In this document: piece by piece, positions 1 through 12,017 of the stretch
Numbering within the stretch: the first letter of the stretch is position 1
Layout: each line of letters begins with the position of its first letter
From: an uncultured bacterium
GTDB lineage: Bacteria > Abyssobacteria > SURF-5
Direction: 5' to 3'
Length of the DNA stretch: 12,017 nucleotides
NCBI GenBank assembly: GCA_964607485.1
Contig: CAZSKP010000066.1
Coordinates: forward strand, 1-12,017
The notes under the pieces: model-generated
Seen by the model: the letters and a program-made list of their open reading frames with translations, nothing else
Databases searched by the model: none
What the model was told of the DNA's origin: nothing
Position numbers and translations under genes: made by a program

Positions 1-60
1 CAAGAGCGTGACAACCAATACAACCGCCGCAAGCAGCGGCAACCTCTCTTTTCGCTTCAT
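1..60 (-). CDS. 5' end of a probable secreted/exported protein (partial, runs off the left edge)
   Basis: The reverse complement reads GGAG-N7-ATG, then MKRKERLPLLAAVVLVVTLL: a basic n-region plus hydrophobic h-region typical of a Sec signal peptide. Only 20 codons are visible. Confidence 0.6.
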   Translation of the reverse strand, partial: MKRKERLPLLAAVVLVVTLL

Positions 61-137
61 GCTTGGTCTCCGGCGTGGCATCGCGAAGATGCCTCGTGCA
101 AAATATTCTGGTACCAAAAGCTCAAAAGTATATTCTA

Positions 138-167
138 AACCACAGATGCACACAGATATACACAGAT
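138..167 (+). repeat. Left arm of inverted repeat, made of 3 tandem 10-bp CACAGATNNA units
   Basis: AACCACAGATGCACACAGATATACACAGAT; matches the reverse complement of 542..571 at 28/30 positions. Confidence 0.9.
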
Positions 168-179
168 GAAGAAATCGGA

Positions 180-563
180 TCAAGGAGGTCCGGCAATCCG
201 CTTCACCTCCACCCGTGTAGTGCCAAAGTTGATTAGGAGACACACCTTCAGGTCGGTTGCTTTCAGATAATTTAGACACTGTGCGAGATGTATATCTTCG
301 ATTCTCTTGACCGCCTTGGTTTCGACGATTATTTCTTCTTCCGCCAGAAGGTCCGCGACATATTCTCCGACACTCTGTCCATCGTAGAGAACCGTGATAG
401 GATATTGCTGTTTCACGAGAAGCCCCGACTTCGCCAGTTCGATTTTGAGCGCGTTCTCATATACTTTCTCCAGGAAACCGCATCCCAGCGAATTTCCTAT
501 CTTGTATGCGCATCCGATTACCTTCTCGGTGATGGTATTTAATCTGTGTCCATCTGTGTGCAT
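180..563 (-). CDS. GxxExxY family protein (PD-(D/E)XK nuclease superfamily)
   Basis: 127 aa with the signature G-F-L-E-K-V-Y (GxxExxY), a D...ExK nuclease motif (ADLL...IVETK), 'AQCLNYL' and a C-terminal 'LLINFG', all characteristic of this family. Confidence 0.92.
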   Translation of the reverse strand: MHTDGHRLNTITEKVIGCAYKIGNSLGCGFLEKVYENALKIELAKSGLLVKQQYPITVLYDGQSVGEYVADLLAEEEIIVETKAVKRIEDIHLAQCLNYLKATDLKVCLLINFGTTRVEVKRIAGPP

Positions 564-571
564 CTGTGGTT
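542..571 (-). repeat. Right arm of inverted repeat (3 tandem 10-bp units), overlapping the GxxExxY start codon
   Basis: ATCTGTGTCCATCTGTGTGCATCTGTGGTT is the inverted copy of 138..167; it encodes the N-terminal MHTDGHR of the ORF. Confidence 0.9.
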
Positions 572-626
572 CCGATCTGTTCTTCTTCTCTTCGTTGTGG
601 CTGTGCCGCGCTACGAATCCGAGAGA

Positions 627-655
627 ATAATATCTTTTCTAGAATGCGGCGTCAA
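627..655 (-). promoter_or_regulatory. Putative sigma70 promoter for the GxxExxY gene
   Basis: Minus strand TTGACG (655..650), 17-nt spacer, TATTAT (632..627). Confidence 0.5.
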
Positions 656-691
656 CCTAATTCTGTCAAGTGCCCTCGCTGGAGGCTGTGC

Positions 692-718
692 CACAGAGAG
701 CACCGAGGACACAGAGAG
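692..718 (+). repeat. Tandem 9-bp repeat x3
   Basis: CACAGAGAG-CACCGAGGA-CACAGAGAG. Confidence 0.75.
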
Positions 719-798
719 TCAGCGCGGACATTGGAACCACTAAGCCTGTCCTCGACAACGATCGGGGAGCGCCAAGGAAGAAATCGAGAGAGGGTCTT

Positions 799-822
799 CT
801 TTGTGCCTTTGTGCCTTGGTGG
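799..822 (-). repeat. Tandem 8-bp repeat x3, with a degenerate inverted partner at 737..776
   Basis: CTTTGTGC-CTTTGTGC-CTTGGTGG. Partner units CCACTAAG (737..744) and GCGCCAAG (769..776) are separated by a 24-nt hairpin-containing insert. Confidence 0.7.
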
Positions 823-870
823 CTAATGTGCTTCTCCCCCGGACTGCTTGATGAAGAACTTATTGCTTTC

Positions 871-879
871 TGATATAAT
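871..879 (+). promoter_or_regulatory. Extended -10 element (TGn-TATAAT) upstream of the protease-cyclase unit
   Basis: TGATATAAT. No well-spaced -35 element. A second TGG-TATTAT lies at 957..965. Confidence 0.4.
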
Positions 880-935
880 TTGCGGAGAGGCCTGTGAGAT
901 TCGATGTAAAGTTCTTGATTCGCTATGGAGCGTTT

Positions 936-953
936 TGCCACGATTTCGTGGCA
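936..953. promoter_or_regulatory. Perfect 8-2-8 palindrome, candidate operator
   Basis: TGCCACGA-TT-TCGTGGCA, about 60 nt upstream of the protease start. Confidence 0.45.
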
Positions 954-1014
954 CAATGGTATTATGAAGAGATCATGACAAGCTATAGTTAGTGCATGAA
1001 CCAAGGAGTTGTTG

Positions 1015-1746
1015 ATGCCTACTACTGAGTGGCATAAAGTAGTCGAAATCTTGATGCCTTACGTTGTGAGAATATGGACGCCCCAAAGCTCTGGCACGGG
1101 ATTCGTAGTATCGAACAGTCGCACCACAAATCTCTGTGCGATTGCAACAGCCGACCACGTGATTAGCCATGCGCACTACTGGGAGGAACCAATCCGCATT
1201 GAGCATCAAGCCTCTTCCAAGACTCTTCTCTTACGGCCAGCAGATCGGGCTATCAAGACAAACCCGACAACCGATACCGCAGCGATCACCTTTTGGCGTA
1301 GCGACCTGGCCTTGCCTGAGACGATGTTGCCTCTTACACCAAAGGCTAAGTGGTTCAAACCCGGAGTTGAGATCGGTTGGCTAGGCTATCCAGCTATCCC
1401 CCGAGCTAGTCTGTGTTTCTTCTCCGGACGGATTAGCGCATGGCTTGCTGCGGAAAGTGCCTATCTGGTGGATGGAGTTGCTATCAACGGTGTCAGCGGC
1501 GGTCCCGCATTCATCCAAATGAACAGCACGCTTGCGGGAGTCGTTTCTGCATATATTCCTAATCGCGCTACGGGGGAACCCCTTCCAGGGCTAGCTGTGG
1601 TTCGCGGTGTCGATCAATTTCACGAGCTTGCGGAGTCGTTTCGTACGCTTGACGAGGCGAAGGCGGAGGAGGTTACTCCTCCTGAGCCGCCACCGCCGAT
1701 ACCGGAGGGCGAAAGCCCAGCAAAATCGCCTCGTGGTGGTGCGTGA
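1015..1746 (+). CDS. Trypsin-like (S1/PA clan) serine protease, no signal peptide
   Basis: AAGGAG SD 6 nt before ATG 1015. Motifs GTGF, TADHV (catalytic His), TDTA (Asp) and NGVSGGP (Ser). Pro-rich C-terminal tail (TPPEPPPPIP). No PDZ domain or hydrophobic N-terminus. Confidence 0.88.
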   Translation: MPTTEWHKVVEILMPYVVRIWTPQSSGTGFVVSNSRTTNLCAIATADHVISHAHYWEEPIRIEHQASSKTLLLRPADRAIKTNPTTDTAAITFWRSDLALPETMLPLTPKAKWFKPGVEIGWLGYPAIPRASLCFFSGRISAWLAAESAYLVDGVAINGVSGGPAFIQMNSTLAGVVSAYIPNRATGEPLPGLAVVRGVDQFHELAESFRTLDEAKAEEVTPPEPPPPIPEGESPAKSPRGGA

Positions 1747-1774
1747 AATTTCCCTAATTTCCAGGGGGTATCGA

Positions 1775-2404
1775 ATGGCTAGGCGATTCGAGAAATCTGT
1801 CATCACAAGGAAAATAGTGCTCTTCTTTGATGTCTGCTCTTCCACCTCGATTCTTGAAGATTTAATCATGACGGAGAACCAAAAACTGTGGAAGAGGTTT
1901 CTGATCGACATAAAGAATTATCTTCGTTCCGAGCGAGCTGCAGTGGACTTTGAAATATACAAATTCCTCGGTGACGGATGGGTACTTCTTCTTGAACCGC
2001 GACCGGAGGGACTTGGGATACTCGACTTTCTTGACGAACTTTCGGATGAGTTTGTGTCGACATACAAAGGCCGTATCGAGAGCGTGCTCACGAGGCGAAT
2101 TAGAAATGTCGGGCTCACTTTTGGAATGGATATTGGCTCATGCATCCCCGTGGTCATGAATCAACAACGTGAGTATACAGGTCGTCCCCTCAACGTGGCC
2201 GCACGTCTCCAAGGAGCCATCGGACAGAAAGACAAGAACCCCCAGTACAAGGCGTTACTCTCCAACAATCTCTATGCGACTTTTGAAGACCAACAGGACA
2301 TAGAAAACGAGTATAAGATCATGCGTGTGAAACGAACCCTCACGAACATCTCTGGAGGTGAAGACTATCACTGCAAGAAGATTTGGCTCAGCCGCGCTCA
2401 GTAG
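1775..2404 (+). CDS. Stand-alone class III adenylate/guanylate (nucleotide) cyclase catalytic domain
   Basis: AGGGGG SD before ATG 1775; the longer ORF-track start at 1607 gives a junk-like extension. Motifs VLFFDVCSST (metal Asp19), YKFLGDG (Lys63, metal Asp67), FGMDIG, and EYTGRPLNVAARL (Asn140/Arg144 transition-state pair). Confidence 0.85.
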   Translation: MARRFEKSVITRKIVLFFDVCSSTSILEDLIMTENQKLWKRFLIDIKNYLRSERAAVDFEIYKFLGDGWVLLLEPRPEGLGILDFLDELSDEFVSTYKGRIESVLTRRIRNVGLTFGMDIGSCIPVVMNQQREYTGRPLNVAARLQGAIGQKDKNPQYKALLSNNLYATFEDQQDIENEYKIMRVKRTLTNISGGEDYHCKKIWLSRAQ

Positions 2405-2480
2405 AGAACTAGGAAAAAGGAGATAGACTCATTTTCTACTTCTTTCCGACGACCCCCTTCGCTCCAACCCAAGCCCCACC

Positions 2481-2514
2481 TTGACATTTTGACGTCATAA
2501 CGCTATAATGTTAT
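2481..2514 (+). promoter_or_regulatory. Consensus sigma70 promoter of the TA operon with overlapping 8-bp operator-like repeats
   Basis: TTGACA (2481..2486), 17 nt, TATAAT (2504..2509). Periodic units GACATTTT/GACGTCAT/AACGCTAT/AATGTTAT at 2483..2514. Confidence 0.85.
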
Positions 2515-2536
2515 AGTGACAGTGGGAGGTGGCGCT

Positions 2537-2770
2537 ATGGCGACGAAGATCAAGCGTGCCACGATCTACTTTGACCCAGACTTGCATAAAGCATTGCGGC
2601 TGAAGGCGGTTGAGACATCGCGGTCCGTATCCGACCTGGTGAACGAGGCCGTCCGGGAGGCCCTTTCGGAGGATGCCGAGGACCTTGCGGCGTTCGAAGA
2701 GCGGGCCGATGAGCCTCTGATCAGCTATGAGGAGATGGTCAAGAGGCTGAAGAAAGATGGCCGCTTATAA
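2537..2770 (+). CDS. CopG/ribbon-helix-helix type II antitoxin
   Basis: GGAGG SD, ATG 2537; 77 aa. RHH pattern (KRATIYFDPDLHKALRLKA...SVSDLVNEAVREAL) and an acidic C-terminal part ending 'EPLISYEEM'. Overlaps the toxin start by 14 nt. Confidence 0.88.
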   Translation: MATKIKRATIYFDPDLHKALRLKAVETSRSVSDLVNEAVREALSEDAEDLAAFEERADEPLISYEEMVKRLKKDGRL

Positions 2771-3068
2771 ACTGTTTTTCAAGAAGTCGGTGGAAAAAGA
2801 GTTGAAGGCTGCCTGCTCTGGGGACAGTCCCGAATCTACAGCCTCGACAGGCTCGGCCCGTAATTCTTGGGACAGTCCCCGTCGCTTAATCCTCAGCCGC
2901 ATCGAAGCTCTCGCCGAAGACCTCCGTCCCCCAGGATGCGAAAAATTGACCGGGCATGAGAGGTATCGGGTGCGTCAGGGAAGATACCGCATTGTGTATT
3001 CGATTCACGATGATGAGCTGACAGTGTGGGTGATAAAAGTCGGCCAGCGAAAGGATGTTTATCGCTGA
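2757..3068 (+). CDS. relE: RelE/ParE-superfamily toxin carrying an in-frame repeat insertion
   Basis: YKLFFKKSVEKEL...RPPGCEKLTG..RYRVRQGRYRIVYSI.D..LTVWVIKVG.RKDVYR is the RelE pattern. An extra low-complexity segment (GDSPESTASTGSARNSWDSP) is encoded by the repeat at 2820..2880. Confidence 0.85.
   Translation: MAAYKLFFKKSVEKELKAACSGDSPESTASTGSARNSWDSPRRLILSRIEALAEDLRPPGCEKLTGHERYRVRQGRYRIVYSIHDDELTVWVIKVGQRKDVYR
2820..2880. repeat. REP-like element with paired GGGGACWGTCCC palindromes, inside the toxin gene
   Basis: GGGGACAGTCCCGAAT (2820..2835) ... ATTCTTGGGACAGTCCCC (2863..2880); the ends are mutually complementary. Confidence 0.75.
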
Positions 3069-3127
3069 CGCGAACAATGGCTTGGTTTTTCGGGATGTTC
3101 GGAGTAGAATAGGCGAGGCGGGTTTCT

Positions 3128-3146
3128 TGCTCCGGGGACAGTCCCC
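3128..3146. repeat. Third copy of the GGGGACAGTCCCC palindrome
   Basis: TGCTCCGGGGACAGTCCC matches 2814..2831 at 17/18 positions. Confidence 0.75.
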
Positions 3147-3166
3147 ATCGCAACAGTGAGGGTTCG

Positions 3167-4087
3167 ATGTCTGAATATGCGCTGATAGTCAAAGACCTCA
3201 AGAAGTACTACGGACGCGTGCGCGCGGTGGACGGCATCTCGTTCGCCATCCGGCGGGGCACGATCTTTTGCTTCGTCGGGCCCAACGGCGCCGGAAAGAC
3301 CACGACGATGGAGGTCATCGAGGGCTTGAAGGAGCCGGACTCGGGCGAGATACTGCTTCTCGACATGGCGCTGCCGCAGGAGGCCGCGCGGGTGAAACAG
3401 GCGATGGGCGTGCAACTGCAGACGACGGGCCTCCTCGAACGTCTCAAGGTGCGCGAGATCATCGACCTGTTCCGCTCTTTCTACGCGCGTCCTCTTCCGA
3501 CGAAACAGGTGATGGCGGCGGTCTCGCTCGATTCAAAACAAGATCAGTTGGTAGCTGAGCTGTCGGGCGGACAACAGCAGCGGCTGGCCGTGGCGCTCGC
3601 GCTCGTGAACGACCCGGAAATACTGTTTCTGGACGAGCCGACAGCCGGCCTCGATCCGCAGGCCCGCCGGGAGGTGTGGCGGGTGATAGAGTCCATAAAG
3701 GAAAGGGGCAAGACCGTCTTCCTCACGACCCACTACATGGACGAAGCCGAGAAGCTGAGCGACGAGGTCGCCATCATCGATAACGGAAAGATAATCGCGC
3801 ACGACGCCCCGAGAAATCTCGTCGCCAACCTGAACAAGGGCAACGTGATAGAGTTCTCCACCGATGGCGGGCCGACGCGGGAGGACTTCGCCCGGCTGAG
3901 CGGCGTCACGTCGGTCAACATCGCGGGCGGAAACGTTGTGCTCTACACCGGCGACGTGAAGGAATGCCTCCTGGAGTTGCTTAACCTTTCACACGAGAAG
4001 GGGTTCGAACTCAAGGACATGCGCTTCCGCAATCCTTCGCTCGAGGACGTGTTCATCGAGCTCACCGGAAGGATGCTGCGGGACTGA
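3167..4087 (+). CDS. ABC-2 type (drug-export-like) transporter ATP-binding protein
   Basis: Walker A GPNGAGKT, signature LSGGQ, Walker B ILFLDE, D-loop PTAGLDP, H-loop TTHYM, and C-terminal 'PSLEDVFIELTG' extension. Confidence 0.95.
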   Translation: MSEYALIVKDLKKYYGRVRAVDGISFAIRRGTIFCFVGPNGAGKTTTMEVIEGLKEPDSGEILLLDMALPQEAARVKQAMGVQLQTTGLLERLKVREIIDLFRSFYARPLPTKQVMAAVSLDSKQDQLVAELSGGQQQRLAVALALVNDPEILFLDEPTAGLDPQARREVWRVIESIKERGKTVFLTTHYMDEAEKLSDEVAIIDNGKIIAHDAPRNLVANLNKGNVIEFSTDGGPTREDFARLSGVTSVNIAGGNVVLYTGDVKECLLELLNLSHEKGFELKDMRFRNPSLEDVFIELTGRMLRD

Positions 4088-4150
4088 CCCGCCCGTCGGC
4101 TTTCTGCCTCAAGAGTAACCCGGATAATGCTCCGCCTTCCTTGGGCCCGT

Positions 4151-4227
4151 TGTCATTCCCGTGAACACGGGAATCCAGGAATTTCTGCCATAGAATAGAA
4201 TGAATTCCCATTTTCGTGGGAATGACA
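4151..4227. repeat. dRS3/REP-like double hairpin (two ATTCCC-N8-GGGAAT units in inverted arrangement)
   Basis: TGTCATTCCC-GTGAACAC-GGGAATCCAG ... TGAATTCCC-ATTTTCGT-GGGAATGACA. The outer TGTCATTCCC/GGGAATGACA are perfect inverted repeats. Confidence 0.8.
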
Positions 4228-4377
4228 TGTCTGAGTTACCCACACGACAAGGAGATTTGCGGACGCCTTCAAGCGACGCGACACCAGCTTCTTTCCCGTA
4301 AAATTATCTCCCAATAATGCCTTCTGCGGTTCCCATCCTGGCCGTTCAAGAGACCCATCAATTTTGACGCTTATCGC

Positions 4378-4406
4378 TTGACACGATTGGCTTTGGATGA
4401 TATAAT
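4378..4406 (+). promoter_or_regulatory. Consensus sigma70 promoter (with extended -10)
   Basis: TTGACA (4378..4383), 17 nt, TATAAT (4401..4406) preceded by TGA. Confidence 0.75.
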
Positions 4407-4618
4407 CTATAGACCATATATGTTATAAGATAATTCTTACAGTATCAGCGTGCGCTCAGGTTTATGAGGATTTATTCGCCGCTGGAGAATAGCAACAATT
4501 TCGTAATCGGCAGCCAGTGACATGCAAAGGGGTGACGTGTCTGGGGATGTGCCAGAAATCCTCGTAAGTACCCTAATAACAAAGGGTTTAAATCGAAGCA
4601 TGCCACCCAATATCCCGA

Positions 4619-4633
4619 GGGCACGGTTCTTGC
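4619..4633 (+). promoter_or_regulatory. Sigma54 (-24/-12) promoter of pilin module 1
   Basis: GGGCACGGTTCTTGC: GG-N10-GC, matching consensus TGGCACGNNNNTTGC except at the first base. Confidence 0.7.
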
Positions 4634-4736
4634 CCGCCGAATCGCAGAGGGGGGATGAGAGTCACCGATGGCTTTCGCCGTTGGCAGGGTCGCGCGGCCG
4701 AGCGACGGGGGCTGCGACAGGAGAGGAGACACCCGC

Positions 4737-5222
4737 GTGTGTGAACATAGGAGGCGCTGCTTGAGGCCGGCCCGTGGCCGAGGCGGTTTCACCATCATAG
4801 AGCTGATGATTGCAACCGCTGTGTTGGTTATTTTCGCAACAGGAACGTACATGGCCATTCTGGCCTCGATAAACCTTTCGAAGACCGCCCGCGAGACAAG
4901 CATCGCCACGGCTGAGCTGGAATGCATTCTCGAGGAAATCTACAACACCCCGTTCATCAATCTGTCGGCTTCGTTTCCGGGATCGGCGCCCAGGCCAGCG
5001 GGCCAATCGGTGGAGACGCCGCCCCCTTGTTACAACGTGAACCCGGCGCTGGACACGAGCATTCCGGCGTACAGGGACCGGAATCTGGAGGATGAGCGGG
5101 TGTGGGTCGAGTATCCCAGCCCGGGAGCGGATCCTCTCGAAATACGGGTGCGCATATGGTGGCGGACCCACCGGGGCACTCATCGAGAGGTGACGATGAG
5201 CACGATGAGAACGAACGTTTAA
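4737..5222 (+). CDS. Type IV minor pilin / pseudopilin, PilV-like
   Basis: Prepilin peptidase site G|FTIIEL with Glu5, followed by a hydrophobic helix. Start uncertain: ATG 4668, GTG 4737 (GGAG SD) or TTG 4761 (AGGAGG SD), all in frame. Confidence 0.85.
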   Translation: MCEHRRRCLRPARGRGGFTIIELMIATAVLVIFATGTYMAILASINLSKTARETSIATAELECILEEIYNTPFINLSASFPGSAPRPAGQSVETPPPCYNVNPALDTSIPAYRDRNLEDERVWVEYPSPGADPLEIRVRIWWRTHRGTHREVTMSTMRTNV

Positions 5223-5239
5223 ACGGTGAAGGAGCGAGT

Positions 5240-5869
5240 ATGCACGACGAAAAACCGGCGGCGTACCGGAAGCACGAGCGGGGATTCACGCTCATCGAGA
5301 TCGCGGTCGTGGTCGTTGTCTTTTGCATCCTGCTGTTGGCGATACTCGGCACGCTGGGCGACTCCTTCGGGATGTTCACGCTGGGTGAGGACGAGGTGGC
5401 CCTGCAGGAACAGAGCCGTGCCGCCATCAACTTCATGTGCGCCGAACTGAGGGAAGCCGGCATTCAGCCCAACCCGACCGGTCCGGACGCCTACCCCACG
5501 ATCACGGGCGGAACGGCCATCCAGTTCGTCCTCCCGACCGACCAGGACGCGGACGGATACCTCACGAAGGGTCCGCCCGCCAGCGCTCTTTATAACGTCG
5601 GCGATGTGGAGTGGGACCTTGCAAACGTGATTCAGTACAGAATCGAGCAAGCCCCAAGCGGCGAAGGAATGCTGGTGCGGCGGGTCAACGGCGCGAATCC
5701 CCGGGTGTTCGCCCGGTACGTCCAGAGCGTCCGGTTCGACGACTTCGACACCGACCCCATAAGCGTGGCCCTCGGGGAGGTAAGGGTTCAGCTTACCATG
5801 TCCAAGAACACAGTCAAGCAGAACGCGCTGACATACAACACGAGCTTCTCGGTGGCAATGCGCAACTAA
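5240..5869 (+). CDS. Type IV minor pilin / pseudopilin, PilW-like
   Basis: AAGGAG SD, ATG 5240. ERG|FTLIEIAVVVVVF; 'LQEQSRAAINFMCAELREAG' is a PilW/GspJ-like helix; DQDADG motif; C-terminal 'SVAMRN'. Confidence 0.88.
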   Translation: MHDEKPAAYRKHERGFTLIEIAVVVVVFCILLLAILGTLGDSFGMFTLGEDEVALQEQSRAAINFMCAELREAGIQPNPTGPDAYPTITGGTAIQFVLPTDQDADGYLTKGPPASALYNVGDVEWDLANVIQYRIEQAPSGEGMLVRRVNGANPRVFARYVQSVRFDDFDTDPISVALGEVRVQLTMSKNTVKQNALTYNTSFSVAMRN

Positions 5870-5887
5870 TCACTTCAAAGGGGGTAC

Positions 5888-7534
5888 ATGAAGATGTTTC
5901 TTGTTCGACCACTGAATAACGAACGCGGAGCCCTCCTCGTCATCATCGCCTCAGTGATGTCGCTCTGTGTCGCGTTCACCGCCATCATGCTGCAGAACGC
6001 CATTTCCGACAACCGCCAAGCGGACACAAACCTGAGAAAGAAAGAGGCGCTCTACACCGCCGAGGGGGTGCTGGAGGTGGCCAAATCGAGGATTCTGAGC
6101 CAGACGGCCAATTATCGCCCCGTCGGCGCAACGGGCACGGTGACTCTCAACGGTCAGCCGGTCTCCTATTCCATCACCCCGCTCTACGCAGAACAGACCG
6201 TCTTCGACACCGACGGACTCATGAGCCAGATTCAGGCCTATCTGCTCCGCTGCACGGCGACGGCCGATGACGTCCCCACGACGGTCGAGAAGATAATCGG
6301 CTGCTCGAAGATGCCGCTGTTTCAATTCGCCATCTTCTACGACGACGACCTGGAGCTCCTGCCCGGCCCCAACATGACGCTCTCCGGCAGGGTCCACTCG
6401 AATGATGACATCTACGTGGGCAGCCGCAACACGCTCACCGTCGACTCCAACTACTTCCGCTCGGCCGGGAACATCTATCTCGCGCGGAAGGACGACCCGC
6501 TGGATTTGATGGGCGGGACGGTGAGGATCGAGGTCAACGACGGCTCGGGCACCTTCGCTGACCTCACGTTCGACAGCACCTCGCCCACGTGGACCGTCGA
6601 TGCGCTCAACACGTGGATGGGGACCGTCCAAAGCACCGACCACGGCATCACCGAGCTGACGCCTCCCTCGGTGCAAACGATAGACGCCTTTGTGCCCGAG
6701 GCAGGGGGCGACTACGTCGACAACGGCGACGGGACGTACACGCAAGTGGCTCCCGGAACGGGCGATTCCACCCGTGGCTACTACCACAGCCAGGCCGACC
6801 TGGCCATCATCGACGGGGTGGCATACAACAAGGCCGGCGCGGACGTGACGGCAATGCTTCCGCCCGGCACAATCACCACCGCGACGATGTACGACGGCCG
6901 CGAGAATGAAGACATCACGGTCACTGAGATCGACGTCAAGAAGTTGTTCGACAGCGGCGTTCTCGTCGGGCACTCCGACCCGAACGGGGCGCTCGTCTAT
7001 GCTACACGCTCCGACACGACGGCCGCTCAGCCGAACGGCATTCGGTTGAAAAACGCCTCCGAGCTGGGAGACGGCTTCACCGTGTGTTCCGACAGTCCGG
7101 TGTATTCCTGGGGAGACTACAACAGCGTCAACAAGAAGCCCGCCGCCATCATATCGGACGCGGTCAACATCCTGTCCAACGCATGGAACGACACCAAGAG
7201 CGCGGGCACACTGCCCAACGCCAGCGAAACCATCTTCAACGCGGCGCTCATCTCGGGCGCTTACGACACGCTGGCCGGCGCGTATAACGGCGGATTGGAA
7301 AATCTGCCCCGGTTCCACGAAAACTGGAATGGGGTGCCGCTGCACATCCGCGGCTCTTTCGTCAATATCTTCAACAGCCAGTATGCGCAGGGGCTCTGGG
7401 TGTACGGCGGCGACAACTACACGGCGCCCGTTCGTGACTGGAACTACGATACCGACTTCAACAATTCGGCGAATCTGCCGCCTTATACTCCCATCAGCGC
7501 CTCGGTGTTCAACGTCGTTTACGACGCGAAATAG
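5888..7534 (+). CDS. PilX-like pilin N-terminus fused to a large C-terminal beta-rich domain (548 aa)
   Basis: NERG|ALLVI class III signal lacking Glu5 (PilX/GspK type), 'ALYTAEG' helix, then a long Gly/Asp/Thr/Asn-rich region (FQFAIFY...GRVHSN...GGLENLPRFHENW...RDWNYD). Confidence 0.8.
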   Translation: MKMFLVRPLNNERGALLVIIASVMSLCVAFTAIMLQNAISDNRQADTNLRKKEALYTAEGVLEVAKSRILSQTANYRPVGATGTVTLNGQPVSYSITPLYAEQTVFDTDGLMSQIQAYLLRCTATADDVPTTVEKIIGCSKMPLFQFAIFYDDDLELLPGPNMTLSGRVHSNDDIYVGSRNTLTVDSNYFRSAGNIYLARKDDPLDLMGGTVRIEVNDGSGTFADLTFDSTSPTWTVDALNTWMGTVQSTDHGITELTPPSVQTIDAFVPEAGGDYVDNGDGTYTQVAPGTGDSTRGYYHSQADLAIIDGVAYNKAGADVTAMLPPGTITTATMYDGRENEDITVTEIDVKKLFDSGVLVGHSDPNGALVYATRSDTTAAQPNGIRLKNASELGDGFTVCSDSPVYSWGDYNSVNKKPAAIISDAVNILSNAWNDTKSAGTLPNASETIFNAALISGAYDTLAGAYNGGLENLPRFHENWNGVPLHIRGSFVNIFNSQYAQGLWVYGGDNYTAPVRDWNYDTDFNNSANLPPYTPISASVFNVVYDAK

Positions 7535-7779
7535 ACGCGCCACATCGGGTTCACGACGAGGGGGGAGAGCCACGGGCTGAGGTCCCCGGATTGCCGCGAA
7601 ATCCTCGTTCTCACGAATTTTCTGACAATTTCCGGCAGTCCCAGACAATTTTTTGATGGTCTCGACACCAAACAAGGGAGGCAAAAGTCTCTGGCCAACA
7701 CCGCTGGATAGCGCGTAACATTTTACAGAATAAATGTTTACATGTGCCGCGGGGATGAGGAGTTCTGCTCCTCGGCTTG

Positions 7780-7795
7780 TGGCAGTCTTCTTGCA
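7780..7795 (+). promoter_or_regulatory. Sigma54 (-24/-12) promoter of pilin module 2
   Basis: TGGCAGTCTTCTTGCA: TGGC...TTGCA with exact GG-N10-GC spacing, about 55 nt upstream of the GTG start. Confidence 0.7.
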
Positions 7796-7849
7796 ACCTA
7801 CACAAGCGGGCAAATGGTCTTTAGAGGCGGAACGTGAGGGAGGAAACCA

Positions 7850-9619
7850 GTGAGAAGATTACGTCAATTTACAAGGAAATGCTGGCAGGGTGCCGGCCTC
7901 AATGAGAGAGGCATACTGCTGGTCTCCGTGGCCGTCGTGTTTACGCTGGCCGCGGCCTTCGTCACGGTGGCGGCCACGAGGACGGTCAACGACAGGCATT
8001 CCACCGCGACGAGAGACGAGAACATGGCCTCATTCTACGCAGCCCAGGCGGGCGAACAGGCGATGAAGGCGGCCATAAGGCAGGATGCGCTGGCAAGGTT
8101 TTCGGCGTTTCAGGCGGCATGGACGGGCGCCGGGGGCATGGGTACGCCCATCCTTGCCAATCCAACGACTTTCTTCGCGAACCAGGTCTCGCTTCCGGGA
8201 GTGCGGCTTCCAAACGGAACCTGTTACGATACGGTACAGGCCAATATTGCATTTGTCGCCCCCGCCGTGATCACGCCGACGAGCCAGGCTTACCAATTCG
8301 CGTACAACATCACGGCTCAGGGGACCGACCCGGATGACCCCGACCGTCTCGCAACCGTTTCCTCGGCCGGCAATTTCTGGATTCAGGTGCAGAGGCAGAG
8401 CTTCGCCAACTATGCGCTTTTCACGGGCACACATACGATGACCAACGGCACGCGCGTATGGTTCACCACCGACACGAATTTCACCGGTCGAGTGCACACC
8501 AACGGCAGATTCGCGTTTGCCTTCTTTCCGACATTCTCCAACGGAGCGGTCTCCAGCGTCTCGACCAATGCGTATTTCTACAACAACGGCAGCCCCGTAC
8601 TGCGTGACGCCGACAACAATGCGCCCAGGGACGTTCCGGTGTTCGGCGAGGGCTTTCAACGCGCAGCCGACCCGATCACGCTGCCGCCGAACGCGTTCGA
8701 CCAGCGCGCCGCCGCGGTGGGCGGGCCGGCTGCCGACAACGCCGAGCTGCGGGCGACGCTCGGATTGGCGCCAAGCACCGATCCTCCTCCCAACGGTATC
8801 TATATTCCGAACGACGGAACCTCGCTCACGGGGGGAATATACGTTCAGGGCAACGTGAACGACATCCAGCCATACGTTGACGGAAGCGAACGACAGTGTT
8901 ATCAGATCACGCATACAAACGGGATGAGCTCAAGCATCGTCGTTGACCAAGCAAACGACCAGACGACGGTCGATGGTATCACCTATCAGGGAGTGCCCAA
9001 CGGAGCGCTGTATGTGGCGGGCAACGTAAATTCCTTCGGCGGACCTGCCAGGCCGGACGAAAGTACAAGGCCGCCCGCAATCCAGTCAGACACGGCTGTG
9101 AGCCTTTTCTCCGAGGGAGACGTGGTAATCACTCGTGACGTCGTCTATGAGGACAACCCGCTCACCATGCCCGACGCGACAAACGTGCTGGGCATATTCA
9201 CTCCCGGCGGCGACATTCGCATCGGCACGAGCGCACCCGATGACGTGATGATTCACAGCACGCTGATGACTTCCCAATCCGATGGAGTCGTTCAGGTGGA
9301 CAGTTACAATTATGGAGAGCCGCGCGGGACGGCTACGATACTGGGCGGAGTCATCTCCAGTTACTACGGCGCGTTCGGCACGTTCAGCAGGGACGGGCAC
9401 CAGACGGGATACTCTCGAAACTTCGTGTACGACCGCCGGCTGAGCGGGGGTCTTGCGCCGCCGTTCTTCCCGACGACCAGCGTATTCAACCCGGCGAACT
9501 CGACGTTCAATCAGACTGCCTGGAGCTCCCAGCGGAGTTATGTGCCGGGCAATTCCGAGACTTTCCAGGTGCCCTCGAGTGAAGCCAGTCTCAATCCCAA
9601 CTTCTCCACTGGAGCGTGA
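7850..9619 (+). CDS. Second PilX-like pilin with a large C-terminal domain (DUF4900-like), 589 aa
   Basis: GGAGG SD, GTG start. NERG|ILLVS (no Glu5), 'SFYAAQAG', 'FANYALFT...FTGRVHTN', and C-terminal 'GYSRNFVYDRRL..G.APPFFP'. The DUF4900 assignment is from motif recall only. Confidence 0.8.
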   Translation: MRRLRQFTRKCWQGAGLNERGILLVSVAVVFTLAAAFVTVAATRTVNDRHSTATRDENMASFYAAQAGEQAMKAAIRQDALARFSAFQAAWTGAGGMGTPILANPTTFFANQVSLPGVRLPNGTCYDTVQANIAFVAPAVITPTSQAYQFAYNITAQGTDPDDPDRLATVSSAGNFWIQVQRQSFANYALFTGTHTMTNGTRVWFTTDTNFTGRVHTNGRFAFAFFPTFSNGAVSSVSTNAYFYNNGSPVLRDADNNAPRDVPVFGEGFQRAADPITLPPNAFDQRAAAVGGPAADNAELRATLGLAPSTDPPPNGIYIPNDGTSLTGGIYVQGNVNDIQPYVDGSERQCYQITHTNGMSSSIVVDQANDQTTVDGITYQGVPNGALYVAGNVNSFGGPARPDESTRPPAIQSDTAVSLFSEGDVVITRDVVYEDNPLTMPDATNVLGIFTPGGDIRIGTSAPDDVMIHSTLMTSQSDGVVQVDSYNYGEPRGTATILGGVISSYYGAFGTFSRDGHQTGYSRNFVYDRRLSGGLAPPFFPTTSVFNPANSTFNQTAWSSQRSYVPGNSETFQVPSSEASLNPNFSTGA

Positions 9620-9622
9620 GAC

Positions 9623-10027
9623 ATGAGTGTGAAAGGACATCTTTCGTTTAGCGGCATCTCGGACTTGATGGCCAGGGGGCGTTCCGGGCGGTACGGAGAC
9701 CTGAGGCTGCTCGGGCTGAGTCTCGGCATAATCTTGCTCTGCGCCGTGGCCCTGCTGGTTCTACAGGCGAGAAGCTCTTCCGAGAAAGCTTCGGCTTCTC
9801 CGGTCAGCACCGCCGTTGCCGCCCCGTCCGTCGGCGTACAGCCTGCGGCGCAGGAACCGACGATCGCGGTCTATGAGACAGGCTCGGCAGTGGCGCAACC
9901 CCACCTGCTCGACCAGCGGGCGGGACCGCACGGAATCGCCGCCGCGCCGCTTTCGCCCGAAGAGCACCGACGCATGCTCCGCGAGATGGCTGAACAGATT
10001 CCAGAGGGCCAGACAATCGTCTTCTAG
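9623..10027 (+). CDS. Hypothetical single-pass membrane protein
   Basis: Fills the gap between two pilin genes on the same strand (3 nt after the upstream stop). Hydrophobic segment LLGLSLGIILLCAVALLVL, Ala/Pro/Ser linker and short helical C-terminus. Confidence 0.65.
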   Translation: MSVKGHLSFSGISDLMARGRSGRYGDLRLLGLSLGIILLCAVALLVLQARSSSEKASASPVSTAVAAPSVGVQPAAQEPTIAVYETGSAVAQPHLLDQRAGPHGIAAAPLSPEEHRRMLREMAEQIPEGQTIVF

Positions 10028-10055
10028 CAGGAACCGGTAAAGGAGGGGATTTTCA

Positions 10056-10637
10056 ATGGGCATCGTGCGCAGCAACCGCGGTCTTACCCTCATAGAGATC
10101 GTGGTATCGGTCGCGATATTGATGTTTCTTGTGCTCGGTGTGGGCGCGATGCTCACGACGTCTCTCAGGGCCGACACGTATAACCAGGACCGCCACATAG
10201 CCGGTAACCTGGCGGCAGGCCTGACGGAAAAGATCGTTGATTATGCCTCGCAGGGCACGACCCAATTCGGCAACCTGATACAAAACAACTTTCAGGGGGC
10301 CATGCCCGGTCCTCAGCAGGCCATCACGGGAGTGCGTCCGGCGATTGCGGCCGAACCGGCGAATGACCGGCTGTACAACGATTTCGACGGCAACGGAGTG
10401 GCCGATTTCGGGATGTCGAGCAAAAGCATATTCGTGTACCAGTTGCTCATCGATGACATCACGGTAGGCGGGGCGACGGGGCTGCTCAAACGGATAACGG
10501 TCCGTATTTATTACGCGAACCAGAACTCCGTGCAGCCGGCGGTGGACCCCGTCAAGCACGCGGACCCCGGCGGCCTGCTGCCGCGCAGGTTTGGGTCTCC
10601 GCTCTCGGAAATAACCACCTACATCGCGCAGCCGTGA
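10056..10637 (+). CDS. Type IV minor pilin / pseudopilin, PilV-like
   Basis: AAGGAGG SD. SNRG|LTLIEIVVSVAILMF; DFDGNG motif; C-terminal 'LKRITVRIYY' strand. Confidence 0.88.
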   Translation: MGIVRSNRGLTLIEIVVSVAILMFLVLGVGAMLTTSLRADTYNQDRHIAGNLAAGLTEKIVDYASQGTTQFGNLIQNNFQGAMPGPQQAITGVRPAIAAEPANDRLYNDFDGNGVADFGMSSKSIFVYQLLIDDITVGGATGLLKRITVRIYYANQNSVQPAVDPVKHADPGGLLPRRFGSPLSEITTYIAQP

Positions 10638-10658
10638 AGAAGAGGGAGCGACGATTCG

Positions 10659-11186
10659 ATGAAGATAAGAGAAATGCGAAGTCCTCACAGAAATTCATCC
10701 GGCTTCTCGCTCATTGAACTTGCAATATCGTTGGTGGTCATGACTCTCATCATAATTGTCGTGCTGAAGTTCTGGATGGACACTTCGGACGCGTTCAGTC
10801 TCGACGGCAACGTCGTGACGACCAAGCAGCAGTCCGAGCGCGCCATGGAGATAATGACCGAGAGGATGCGTCGGGCCGACATGACGGTAGTGCCCTCCCC
10901 CTTTGTCGTGAGTAACGGAGGCGCCACCATCAGCTTTGTCGACAATTCCGACGGCAGCCAGGTCCAGTACAGCCTGGCGCCTCTCGCGCCCACCGCTCCG
11001 AACTGGGGACAGATCGTCCAGACCGTCAACGGCACGCAGAACGTTATCGCCAGCTATGCCGAGTCGCTTCAGTTCGCCGTTTCGCCCACCGACATGGTTA
11101 CCGTCACCGCGCGGTTTCATAAAGGCGACAAGCGTCGCACGGAGACATGGTTTACGCTGGAATCCAGCGTCTCGCCCCGGATGTAG
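10659..11186 (+). CDS. Type IV minor pilin / pseudopilin, PilW-like
   Basis: SSG|FSLIELAISLVVM; 'QQSERAMEIMTERMRRA' helix; C-terminal 'SSVSPRM'. Confidence 0.85.
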   Translation: MKIREMRSPHRNSSGFSLIELAISLVVMTLIIIVVLKFWMDTSDAFSLDGNVVTTKQQSERAMEIMTERMRRADMTVVPSPFVVSNGGATISFVDNSDGSQVQYSLAPLAPTAPNWGQIVQTVNGTQNVIASYAESLQFAVSPTDMVTVTARFHKGDKRRTETWFTLESSVSPRM

Positions 11187-11214
11187 TCAGGAACGAACCC
11201 GCACGGAGGCACAA

Positions 11215-11245
11215 GAAAAGCCCGGCTCTCGAACTGAGTCGGGCT
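11215..11245 (-). terminator. Intrinsic terminator hairpin between convergent genes
   Basis: Stem AGCCCGGCTC (11219..11228) / GAGTCGGGCT (11236..11245) with one non-Watson-Crick position. The U-tract follows on the minus strand. Confidence 0.65.
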
Positions 11246-11362
11246 AAAACATTGCGGCTCCGCGCCGCTATCATATGTCCGCTTCTGAGACTCCTCTCGC
11301 CCTCTCTGGAACTCCGCTTTTTGGGGGAATTCGCGAAATTTCCTCGCCAACGAGGGAAAGCC

Positions 11363-11680
11363 CTAGGCGATCAGGTCGAGAAATGTTCCCCGCTCGGCAA
11401 GCCCTCGTTGCCCGGTCTGCTGTTGAAGGTCCGGAGAAGTAAGGGGGGTCCGCTGCTCGTCTATCGTGGTGTCCTCGGCCTGAAGCCCGCCGACCGCGTT
11501 GTCCATGTCGTTTATCAGGATCTGGTCGTTGCGCGAACCCCGGACGGTGTCCTCCGCACCGAGCCTGTCGGCGGAGTTATTGGCGCCCGTCCGTGGATTG
11601 CGCACGGGATTCAGCACCGGATCGAGCTGATTCGGCAATAATGTAGTAAAAACGAGTGGATTTAGCGCTCGCTGACCCAT
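11363..11680 (-). CDS. Hypothetical low-complexity protein with a C-terminal GxxLDLxA motif
   Basis: GAGGG SD 5 nt before ATG. 105 aa, polar, ends RGTFLDLIA. Lies between two minus-strand terminators. Confidence 0.55.
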   Translation of the reverse strand: MGQRALNPLVFTTLLPNQLDPVLNPVRNPRTGANNSADRLGAEDTVRGSRNDQILINDMDNAVGGLQAEDTTIDEQRTPLTSPDLQQQTGQRGLAERGTFLDLIA

Positions 11681-11793
11681 ATTTTCCCTCGCTTAAAATT
11701 ATATCATCCAGCTGTCCTCCTGTCAATCTTCGTTGCTGGTCGAGCAGGCTCGCAGACACGATTGCGCTCTGGGACGGAGGCGGGGGGCCACAC

Positions 11794-11833
11794 AAAAAGA
11801 ATCCCCCGGGAACGCGTTTGCGTTCCCGGGGGA
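11794..11833 (-). terminator. Rho-independent terminator
   Basis: Perfect 14-bp stem TCCCCCGGGAACGC (11802..11815) / GCGTTCCCGGGGGA (11820..11833), 4-nt loop, followed on the minus strand by TTCTTTTT; 32 nt after the upstream stop. Confidence 0.9.
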
Positions 11834-11865
11834 GGTGTGTTGCCGGTTATGCCGGCCTTCAGGAT

Positions 11866-12017
11866 TTAGAAGACCAGCATGGCCTGTACGTACACGTAGT
11901 CGAGGTCGTCGTCGTGGCCAACGCCCCAAGAATTCTTGATCGCGTCATCGGCGAAGAAGTGCGCCCAACCGACGCGCAGATTCAGATCCTCGGTGTACTG
12001 GTAGTCGGCCAACAGGT
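11866..12017 (-). CDS. C-terminus of an outer-membrane beta-barrel protein (alginate-export/porin-like), partial
   Basis: The minus strand reads LLADYQYTEDLNLRVGWAHFFADDAIKNSWGVGHDDDLDYVYVQAMLVF*: alternating amphipathic strands and a terminal Phe (BAM signal), followed by a strong terminator. Confidence 0.75.
   Translation of the reverse strand, partial: LLADYQYTEDLNLRVGWAHFFADDAIKNSWGVGHDDDLDYVYVQAMLVF

Follow-up and report, generated by a model that had tools for sequence, protein, structure and literature searches.

A class III-type cyclase and a trypsin-like protease side by side in an uncultured bacterium: probably separate passengers

In a 12,017-nucleotide (nt) stretch of DNA from an uncultured bacterium of the lineage SURF-5 (Abyssobacteria; assembly GCA_964607485.1, contig CAZSKP010000066.1, positions 1 to 12,017), a gene for a trypsin-like protease is followed closely by a gene for a stand-alone nucleotidyl cyclase. 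We call this whole stretch the window. Do the two genes form an undescribed signalling or anti-phage module, as a first-pass annotation made from the sequence alone had proposed, or are they unrelated neighbours, which was its fallback? A genuine system of this kind would extend cyclic-mononucleotide immunity by a protease branch; evidence against such a module, on the other hand, spares bench effort on a chance adjacency. We suggest, with a probability of about 0.6, that the pair consists of an orphan cyclase related to those of Pycsar and an independent protease, lying side by side in one island of foreign composition. Rather than making up a new two-gene system, the genes are probably separate passengers.

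Adjacency of the two genes

The protease gene (1015..1746, plus strand; ATG at 1015, TGA at 1744-1746) encodes 243 amino acids (aa) with an HtrA-like trypsin fold and a cytoplasmic location. The sequence AAGGAG at 1003-1008, 6 nt 5' of its ATG, reads as a Shine-Dalgarno site. A spacer of 28 nt (1747..1774) separates it from the cyclase gene (1775..2404, plus strand; ATG at 1775, TAG at 2402-2404), whose product of 209 aa is a predicted single-domain class III nucleotidyl cyclase. The spacer holds a second Shine-Dalgarno site, AGGGGG at 1763-1768, again 6 nt 5' of the ATG, and neither a sigma-70-like promoter nor an intrinsic terminator was found between the genes. Both start codons fit the N-termini in homologue alignments. 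The first-pass annotation had thus described the arrangement correctly: two co-directional genes 28 nt apart, each with its own Shine-Dalgarno site.

Adjacency was surveyed from the side of the cyclase, in 54 cyclase loci with 6 kb on either side; in 44 of them the cyclase is flanked on each side by at least 800 nt. No relative of the protease lies within 6 kb of the cyclase in any of the 54 loci (tblastn, E<=1e-3), and when all 2007 open reading frames (ORFs) of the loci were searched with a profile built from 120 protease homologues, the best E-value was only 0.91. At the locus whose cyclase is 65% identical to that of the window (L001), an antitoxin gene and a ParE gene lie upstream; at another, with a cyclase 57% identical (L002), an FGE-sulfatase gene lies upstream and a pseudopilin gene downstream. 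Neither of these two nearest relatives has any protease beside it. Nor was a trypsin domain found fused to the cyclase in the seven matches classed as longer (7/7) or in 34 representatives of at least 280 aa, which were searched with a local protease profile and, for 37 of the 41, with Pfam. The other genes of the window have no counterpart in any of the 54 loci except generic ABC ATPases. Clustering of all ORFs and a phmmer comparison (E<=1e-3) of the two nearest genes per side revealed no neighbour shared across the loci apart from a synteny among closely related Acidobacteriota, to which we return below. A small domain common to the cyclase neighbours was considered as well, and the all-against-all comparison at that threshold gave the Acidobacteriota synteny only.

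The conserved co-occurrence by which a protease-effector defence module is recognised is therefore absent here (0 of 54 loci, no fusion), and the protease-cyclase module is not supported. Since the relatives are not adjacent and no fusion was found, unrelated neighbours is the better-supported reading of the pair.

Comparison with described modules is of use at this point. In protease-effector modules a trypsin- or caspase-like protease is combined with MBL, an alpha/beta-hydrolase, Pepco or EACC1 (PMC12642450). The window resembles these in that a trypsin-fold protease gene adjoins the gene of a small enzyme, in surroundings that look defence-like. It differs in that the proteases described in the available part of that paper carry fused sensors (STAND among others) and evolve together with their effectors, whereas the window protease is bare and its adjacency is not conserved. 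The word 'cyclase' is absent from the text of PMC12642450, and the literature, so far as the available parts of it extend, names no system in which a cyclic nucleoside monophosphate (cNMP) or Pycsar cyclase is paired with a trypsin-like or serine protease.

What the two genes do share is their surroundings. The G+C content at third codon positions (GC3) is 0.52-0.57 in the protease gene, the cyclase gene, a GxxExxY gene to the left and a ParE gene to the right, versus 0.72-0.83 in the genes from 3167 on. Because of this difference we regard the region from about 1 to 3100 as an island of foreign composition, in agreement with the earlier description of AT-richer DNA between a nuclease element and a toxin-antitoxin pair.

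The cyclase, the protease and their families

The palm-like cyclase-homology fold and the motif register both point to a class III nucleotidyl cyclase. A PDB profile search with 60 cyclase homologues retrieved CyaB (3r5g, E 1.2e-4) and also bPAC with the catalytic motifs in register, those of the window protein lining up with FSDI, KFVGD and NLASRL of CyaB. The AlphaFold2 model has a pLDDT (predicted local distance difference test) of 93.9. When it was compared with the PDB by Foldseek, CyaC (1wc1) was best at E 7.7e-10, CyaB (3r5g) had E 2.6e-9, TM-scores were 0.64-0.70, and the 192 matches at E<=0.001 included bPAC and other class III cyclases. All 60 relatives have Asp19, Lys63, Asp67, Glu133 and Arg144, and at least 90% have Asn140; residues 115-121 read TFGMDIG. 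The first-pass annotation had named the residues correctly, describing a bare catalytic domain with both metal-binding Asp residues, the Asn/Arg pair, the Lys, Glu133 and the unusual TFGMDIG. With the class III adenylyl cyclases (CyaB, CyaC, and bPAC in 5mbg) the protein shares fold, motif register and the purine-type Lys. It differs from them in its low identity (15-18%), in lacking a regulatory domain, in having Glu for Asp/Thr at the second base-reading position and in having TFGMDIG for (R/I)xGIxxG. It also differs in matching no Pfam or NCBIfam family at E<=1, PF00211 (Guanylate_cyc) included; this Pfam model matches seven of the 60 family members at E<=1, the best at 0.001.

The only defence model to match the window cyclase is PADLOC PDLC02367 (PycC), at a weak E of 5.2e-4 and over residues 111-204 only. 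Across the family, PycC models match 35 of the 60 members at E<=0.01 (best 4.2e-7) and are the only curated models that match in numbers. The PDB profile search, read down to E<=10, brought up no solved PycC structure. Judged by sequence, the cyclase would belong to a discrete family distantly related to PycC, with PycC as its nearest curated relatives.

How close is this to Pycsar itself? The window cyclase is likewise a single-domain class III-type protein with both metal-binding Asp residues, and at two of the 54 loci a family member lies near a PycTM-type (L015) or TIR-effector-like (L017) gene. Unlike Pycsar cyclases, it has no adjacent transmembrane, TIR or cNMP-binding effector by Pfam or PADLOC, its neighbours being the protease, the GxxExxY gene and a ribbon-helix-helix (RHH) plus ParE pair; most loci of the family likewise show no recognisable effector. 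The match to PycC is weak and partial, and Lys63/Glu133 are of the purine type, in contrast to the pyrimidine-specifying residues given for BcPycC and EaPycC in the available part of PMC11224242. The earlier statement that this is not canonical Pycsar thus holds, with the addition that the cyclase appears to be distantly related to PycC all the same. A new Pycsar clade F with transmembrane effectors is described in the accessible part of a domain-centric discovery paper.

A further comparison is offered by Pycsar-related subclades and Pucsar, which are said in the available part of a preprint (10.64898/2026.08.12.744502) to comprise stand-alone cNMP cyclases in conflict contexts, with a specificity that varies by subclade and includes predicted users of ATP and GTP. 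The effectors given in that part are CNBD-TIR, 3TM pJV1-spdB3, E2/JAB and caspase-family peptidases, with no mention of a trypsin-like protease (10.64898/2026.08.12.744502). The window cyclase is similarly stand-alone, and one member of its family lies near a WYL-type regulator (WCX, L051). It differs from the Pucsar cyclases so described in adjoining a trypsin-like protease.

An exhaustive profile search of 1.84 billion representatives returned 604 cluster representatives (50% identity) at E<=1e-3 and 396 at 1e-10. As no more than 604 were found, we consider the family discrete and not merging into the canonical cyclases. A typical member has about 206 aa; the median is 216 aa among the 149 representatives listed, 34 of which have at least 280 aa and mostly consist of an N-terminal cyclase with a varied, unannotated C-terminal extension. 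The 54 loci, obtained in one genome scan with the cyclase alignment, come from at least 13 phyla. In the cyclase tree phyla are mixed, with 65% identity between them; the window cyclase clusters with rows from Thermodesulfobacteriota and Planctomycetota (Shimodaira-Hasegawa-like approximate likelihood ratio test, SH-aLRT, 99), and the five Planctomycetota rows correspond to five changes on the tree. Such a pattern suggests that the family is horizontally scattered across phyla.

Elongated cyclases of 400-626 aa occur at loci L026, L027, L029, L030, L033, L034, L036, L037, L039, L042, L043 and L044 and among the protein matches P0242-P0248. Most are from Acidobacteriota and keep a stable place next to ThrRS or TldD/PmbA-like genes, and their C-terminal extensions are mutually unrelated. 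A constant cyclase with a variable tail resembles sensor-effector fusions. An ORF downstream of the cyclase at L019 was considered as a second cyclase and rejected (hhalign probability 0.3%).

What might the cyclase do? If the fold of the family is a guide, it would work as a homodimer in which Asp19 and Asp67 hold two metal ions, the transition state being stabilised by Asn140 and Arg144. Recognition of the base would fall to Lys63 and Glu133; by class III rules the pattern is purine-like and the substrate probably ATP. The predicted product is a 3',5'-cyclic mononucleotide. Its receptor would not be a conserved neighbour, and the effector may be unlinked or vary between genomes. Members of the family are mostly orphans, with PycTM, TIR-like effectors or genes of other defence types beside some of them; we therefore think defence- or conflict-type cNMP signalling the likeliest role, and such a role for the cyclase alone is plausible. 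A compact, well-conserved family that leans toward PycC, carries a Lys/Glu pair of purine type, lacks any conserved partner and often has defence-type genes nearby would lend itself well to studying how 'orphan' immune cyclases reach their receptors.

By its double beta-barrel fold and by its triad the protease is a PA-clan trypsin-like serine peptidase. Its catalytic His48 (in TADHV), Asp87 (DTAAI) and Ser161 (GVSGGP) occur without exception in all 63 aligned relatives, which bears out the intact triad noted earlier, and 37 further positions are invariant in the same alignment. Pfam Trypsin_2 matches it at E 1.5e-5 and 26.2 bits, just under the 27.6-bit cut-off; the precomputed Pfam field of the protein collection gives PF13365, and the ESM Atlas groups it with trypsin-like families. 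The AlphaFold2 model (pLDDT 87.9) finds the protease domains of DegS and HtrA in Foldseek at E of about 1e-11 to 1e-10 (DegS 2qf0 at 1.7e-11, TM-score about 0.6). The C-terminal PDZ domain and periplasmic export that define the HtrA/DegP family are both lacking, as the first-pass annotation had recognised. No PDZ or any other second Pfam domain was found at E<=1. The N-terminus is conserved (W6 and P15 in at least 90% of relatives), and residues 6-16 are confidently modelled as a helix; this N-terminus is therefore not a signal peptide.

Behind the protease domain come a C-terminal helix and a proline-rich tail, both kept across the family (residues 201-243, window positions 1615-1743, tail consensus ETPPxEPPPPxPE). 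They may serve as a docking or autoinhibitory element. PADLOC gave only weak matches, to RT-Protease_XI (8e-7), PDC-S45 (2.3e-5) and LmuA (9.2e-5). With HtrA/DegS, the Lamassu LmuA variants and the type XI retron reverse transcriptase (RT)-protease the window protease has in common the trypsin fold, the intact triad and these faint resemblances to LmuA and RT-Protease_XI. It differs from them in having no PDZ domain, signal peptide, fused RT or SMC-like LmuB partner, and in its conserved C-terminal helix and tail. A retron reading prompted by the RT-Protease_XI match was rejected, as there is no RT gene and no match to a non-coding RNA.

The protease family is a separate and far larger one, made up of HtrA-like domains that stand alone and keep their catalytic residues. 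Identity to the window protein is 55-78% among the 119 other homologues listed (120 with itself), so that the family, large and uncharacterised as it is, is strongly conserved across phyla. By source name the listed homologues come from Nitrospirota, Verrucomicrobiota, Planctomycetota, Eisenbacteria and, in one case (P0236, 58% identical), the archaeon Nitrososphaera; on account of this last sequence the family seems to span domains at high identity.

Points against and alternative readings

Several observations weigh against the view that the cyclase, as an orphan of the Pycsar-related kind, and the protease are independent genes that have come to lie together. Some concern the independence of the two genes and others the defence-type role of the cyclase. 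We take the former first. The spacing of 28 nt speaks for a link, and given this short gap and the lack of a promoter or terminator within it, the pair is probably co-transcribed in the window. The two genes are also alike in GC3 (0.52 for the protease, 0.55 for the cyclase). The closest metagenomic relatives of the cyclase (P0004-P0011, 63-69% identity) stand outside the 54-locus census, and the pairing may be a young one confined to a single clade. Finally, pairing of this cyclase family with a trypsin fold may recur. At L004, from a Nitrospirales bacterium, an AbiU gene (PADLOC 1.3e-53), the cyclase and a trypsin-fold protease gene are packed head to tail (1397-4610). There is a 4-nt overlap between the AbiU ORF and that of the cyclase, and about 40-60 nt separate the cyclase from the protease gene downstream. 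This second protease (Pfam Trypsin_2 8.5e-4, PADLOC LmuA 3.8e-10) was considered as a member of the window protease family and rejected: BLASTP gives E 0.18, and hhalign aligns the Ser motif only (E 0.0013, probability 18.6%). The L004 genes may represent a defence island or, alternatively, a unit of three genes not described before.

From these observations one can construct a rare system of two genes on the Pycsar pattern, with a trypsin-fold protease in place of the cNMP-binding transmembrane or TIR effector; the cyclase product would activate the protease, or the protease would activate the cyclase by cleaving it. The close spacing with a Shine-Dalgarno site for each gene and nothing promoter- or terminator-like between them would suit such a system. 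So would neighbours of the cyclase that vary as modular effectors do (PycTM at L015, the TIR-like protein at L017, transmembrane proteins at six loci, the unrelated trypsin-like protease at L004). The proteases of the window and of L004 both match PADLOC LmuA, the former also RT-Protease_XI and PDC-S45, and protease-effector modules are common in defence, as the available part of PMC12642450 has it. Against this stand the 0 of 54 loci with the window protease family beside the cyclase and the lack of any fusion. Moreover, a bare protease of 243 aa is too small to hold a cNMP-binding domain as well, and Pfam detected none in it (E<=1). The protease family is about eight times the size of the cyclase family (1759 matches versus 230 at E<=1e-3). 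At L004 a cyclase between AbiU and a protease fits a defence island equally well, and a single trypsin-like neighbour in 54 loci is within chance for defence-rich regions, the window itself having been picked for its pair. The available parts of the literature list neither a cyclase as an effector activated by a protease nor a trypsin-like protease as an effector of the Pycsar type. We consider such a system unlikely, although it survives better than the other alternatives.

One may speculate more broadly that the cyclase family signals to effectors without a classical cNMP-binding domain, a bare trypsin-fold protease acting as effector or regulator in the window and, independently, at L004. 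If true, this would be an undescribed cNMP-to-protease or protease-to-cyclase axis in bacterial immunity. We see it as a long shot.

The second set of observations concerns the neighbours of the cyclase relatives, taken as the two nearest genes per side, with Pfam run on all 190 and PADLOC on 24 selected proteins and on the neighbours at L001-L028. At about 17 of the 54 loci these neighbours include defence, toxin-antitoxin or mobile genes; this is a raw count, and any enrichment is an impression rather than a statistical result. The first-pass annotation had named two findings that would speak against its module, non-adjacency of the relatives and lack of a defence-island association; the former is what we see, and the latter, with these 17 or so loci, is not. 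Ten loci have neighbours of defence type: AbiU and the LmuA-like protease (L004), PDC-M36A (L005), EAD1 (L011), CHAT (L016), an AriA/GajA-like ATPase (L020), a helicase and a methyltransferase (L022), DzbA (L024) and WCX (L051), together with the two that recall Pycsar. Of these two, the PycTM-like gene at L015 (978-3073; PADLOC 8.2e-16) is divergent and about 740 nt from the cyclase; at L017 (5986-8410) a protein of 554 aa with a TIR-effector match (1.8e-6) is encoded 170-180 nt downstream. Seven loci have toxin-antitoxin or mobile neighbours, namely ParE (L001), a weakly matched IS200-like element (L018), HipA (L023), PIN (L030), IS110 (L032), ORF6N (L033) and DUF4160/DUF2442 (L041). Small transmembrane proteins of no known family occur beside the cyclase at L005, L006, L007, L013, L020 and L038. 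Other loci are plainly of housekeeping character, above all in two subclades of Acidobacteriota, where an elongated cyclase stands in stable synteny with ThrRS and TldD/PmbA-like genes, and this weakens a role in defence.

Could the cyclase then be a housekeeping or regulatory adenylyl cyclase whose cAMP serves everyday signalling by way of receptors encoded at other loci, with no part in conflict? The Acidobacteriota synteny is what one would expect in that case. Lys63/Glu133 are like the Lys/Asp pair of adenylyl cyclases, the best matches in the PDB by structure and by sequence are adenylyl cyclases, and JGI labels some members of the family 'class 3 adenylate cyclase'. Arguing the other way are the patchy spread over many phyla with 65% identity between phyla, the foreign GC3 of the gene in the window, and the neighbours in about 17 of the 54 loci. 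PycC models of PADLOC also match 35 of 60 members versus seven of 60 for Pfam Guanylate_cyc, and the protein has no sensor or regulatory domain. We hold a purely housekeeping role to be improbable. Very improbable, in our opinion, is a cyclase working without any dedicated neighbour, either by a constitutive 'decoy' or guard signal or by toxin-like depletion of nucleotides: no partner is conserved in the 54 loci, the architecture is minimal, the diverse unannotated extensions of the elongated forms could be sensors and the minimal cyclase of Panoptes works by constitutive synthesis (available part of PMC12657218), yet the Panoptes enzyme, as described there, has a different fold (minimal CRISPR polymerase) and an adjacent effector, and the window gives no sign of toxicity or of an antidote.

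The island and the rest of the window

The left flank of the island is formed by a gene of the GxxExxY / PD-(D/E)XK nuclease superfamily on the minus strand (180..563; Pfam PDDEXK_3 E 2.6e-41, NCBIfam TIGR04256 GxxExxY E 2.1e-42; GC3 0.54). A promoter-like site on the minus strand at 655-627 points toward it. In the gap of 451 nt (564-1014) between this gene and the protease gene there are ORFs with no Pfam match, and no Rfam match was found.

To the right of the cyclase, on the plus strand, lie a ribbon-helix-helix antitoxin gene (2534..2770; Pfam Antitox_RHH E 6.2e-6, RHH_5 3.3e-4 and NCBIfam RelB-like E 1.1e-5, all under their cut-offs) and a gene for a ParE/RelE-type toxin (2757..3068; Pfam ParE_toxin E 5.4e-8, 33.7 bits and thus above the 23-bit cut-off; GC3 0.57), which forms the right flank of the island. 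A sigma-70-type promoter (2481..2509, plus strand) stands 5' of the two, with TTGACA and TATAAT 17 nt apart and 12 of 12 consensus positions. Having a consensus promoter of its own, the RHH-ParE pair would be a separate transcription unit. A second, overlapping sigma-70 match lies at 2489-2517, also 5' of the pair.

Scans for tRNA genes and Rfam families found none in the window. The protease and the cyclase gave no tblastn match in plasmid and phage collections, hence no evidence of plasmid or phage origin. Farther to the right, from 4668 to 11186 on the plus strand, runs a row of pilin-like or pseudopilin genes. An N-terminal methylation motif is present in four ORFs of the window, which begin at 4668, 5102, 10056 and 10659. 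The row also includes an ORF of 589 aa with DUF4900 and large ORFs without a family match (5888-7534 and 9623-10027). It looks like a minor-pilin cluster of a type IV pilus or a type II secretion system belonging to the host genome.

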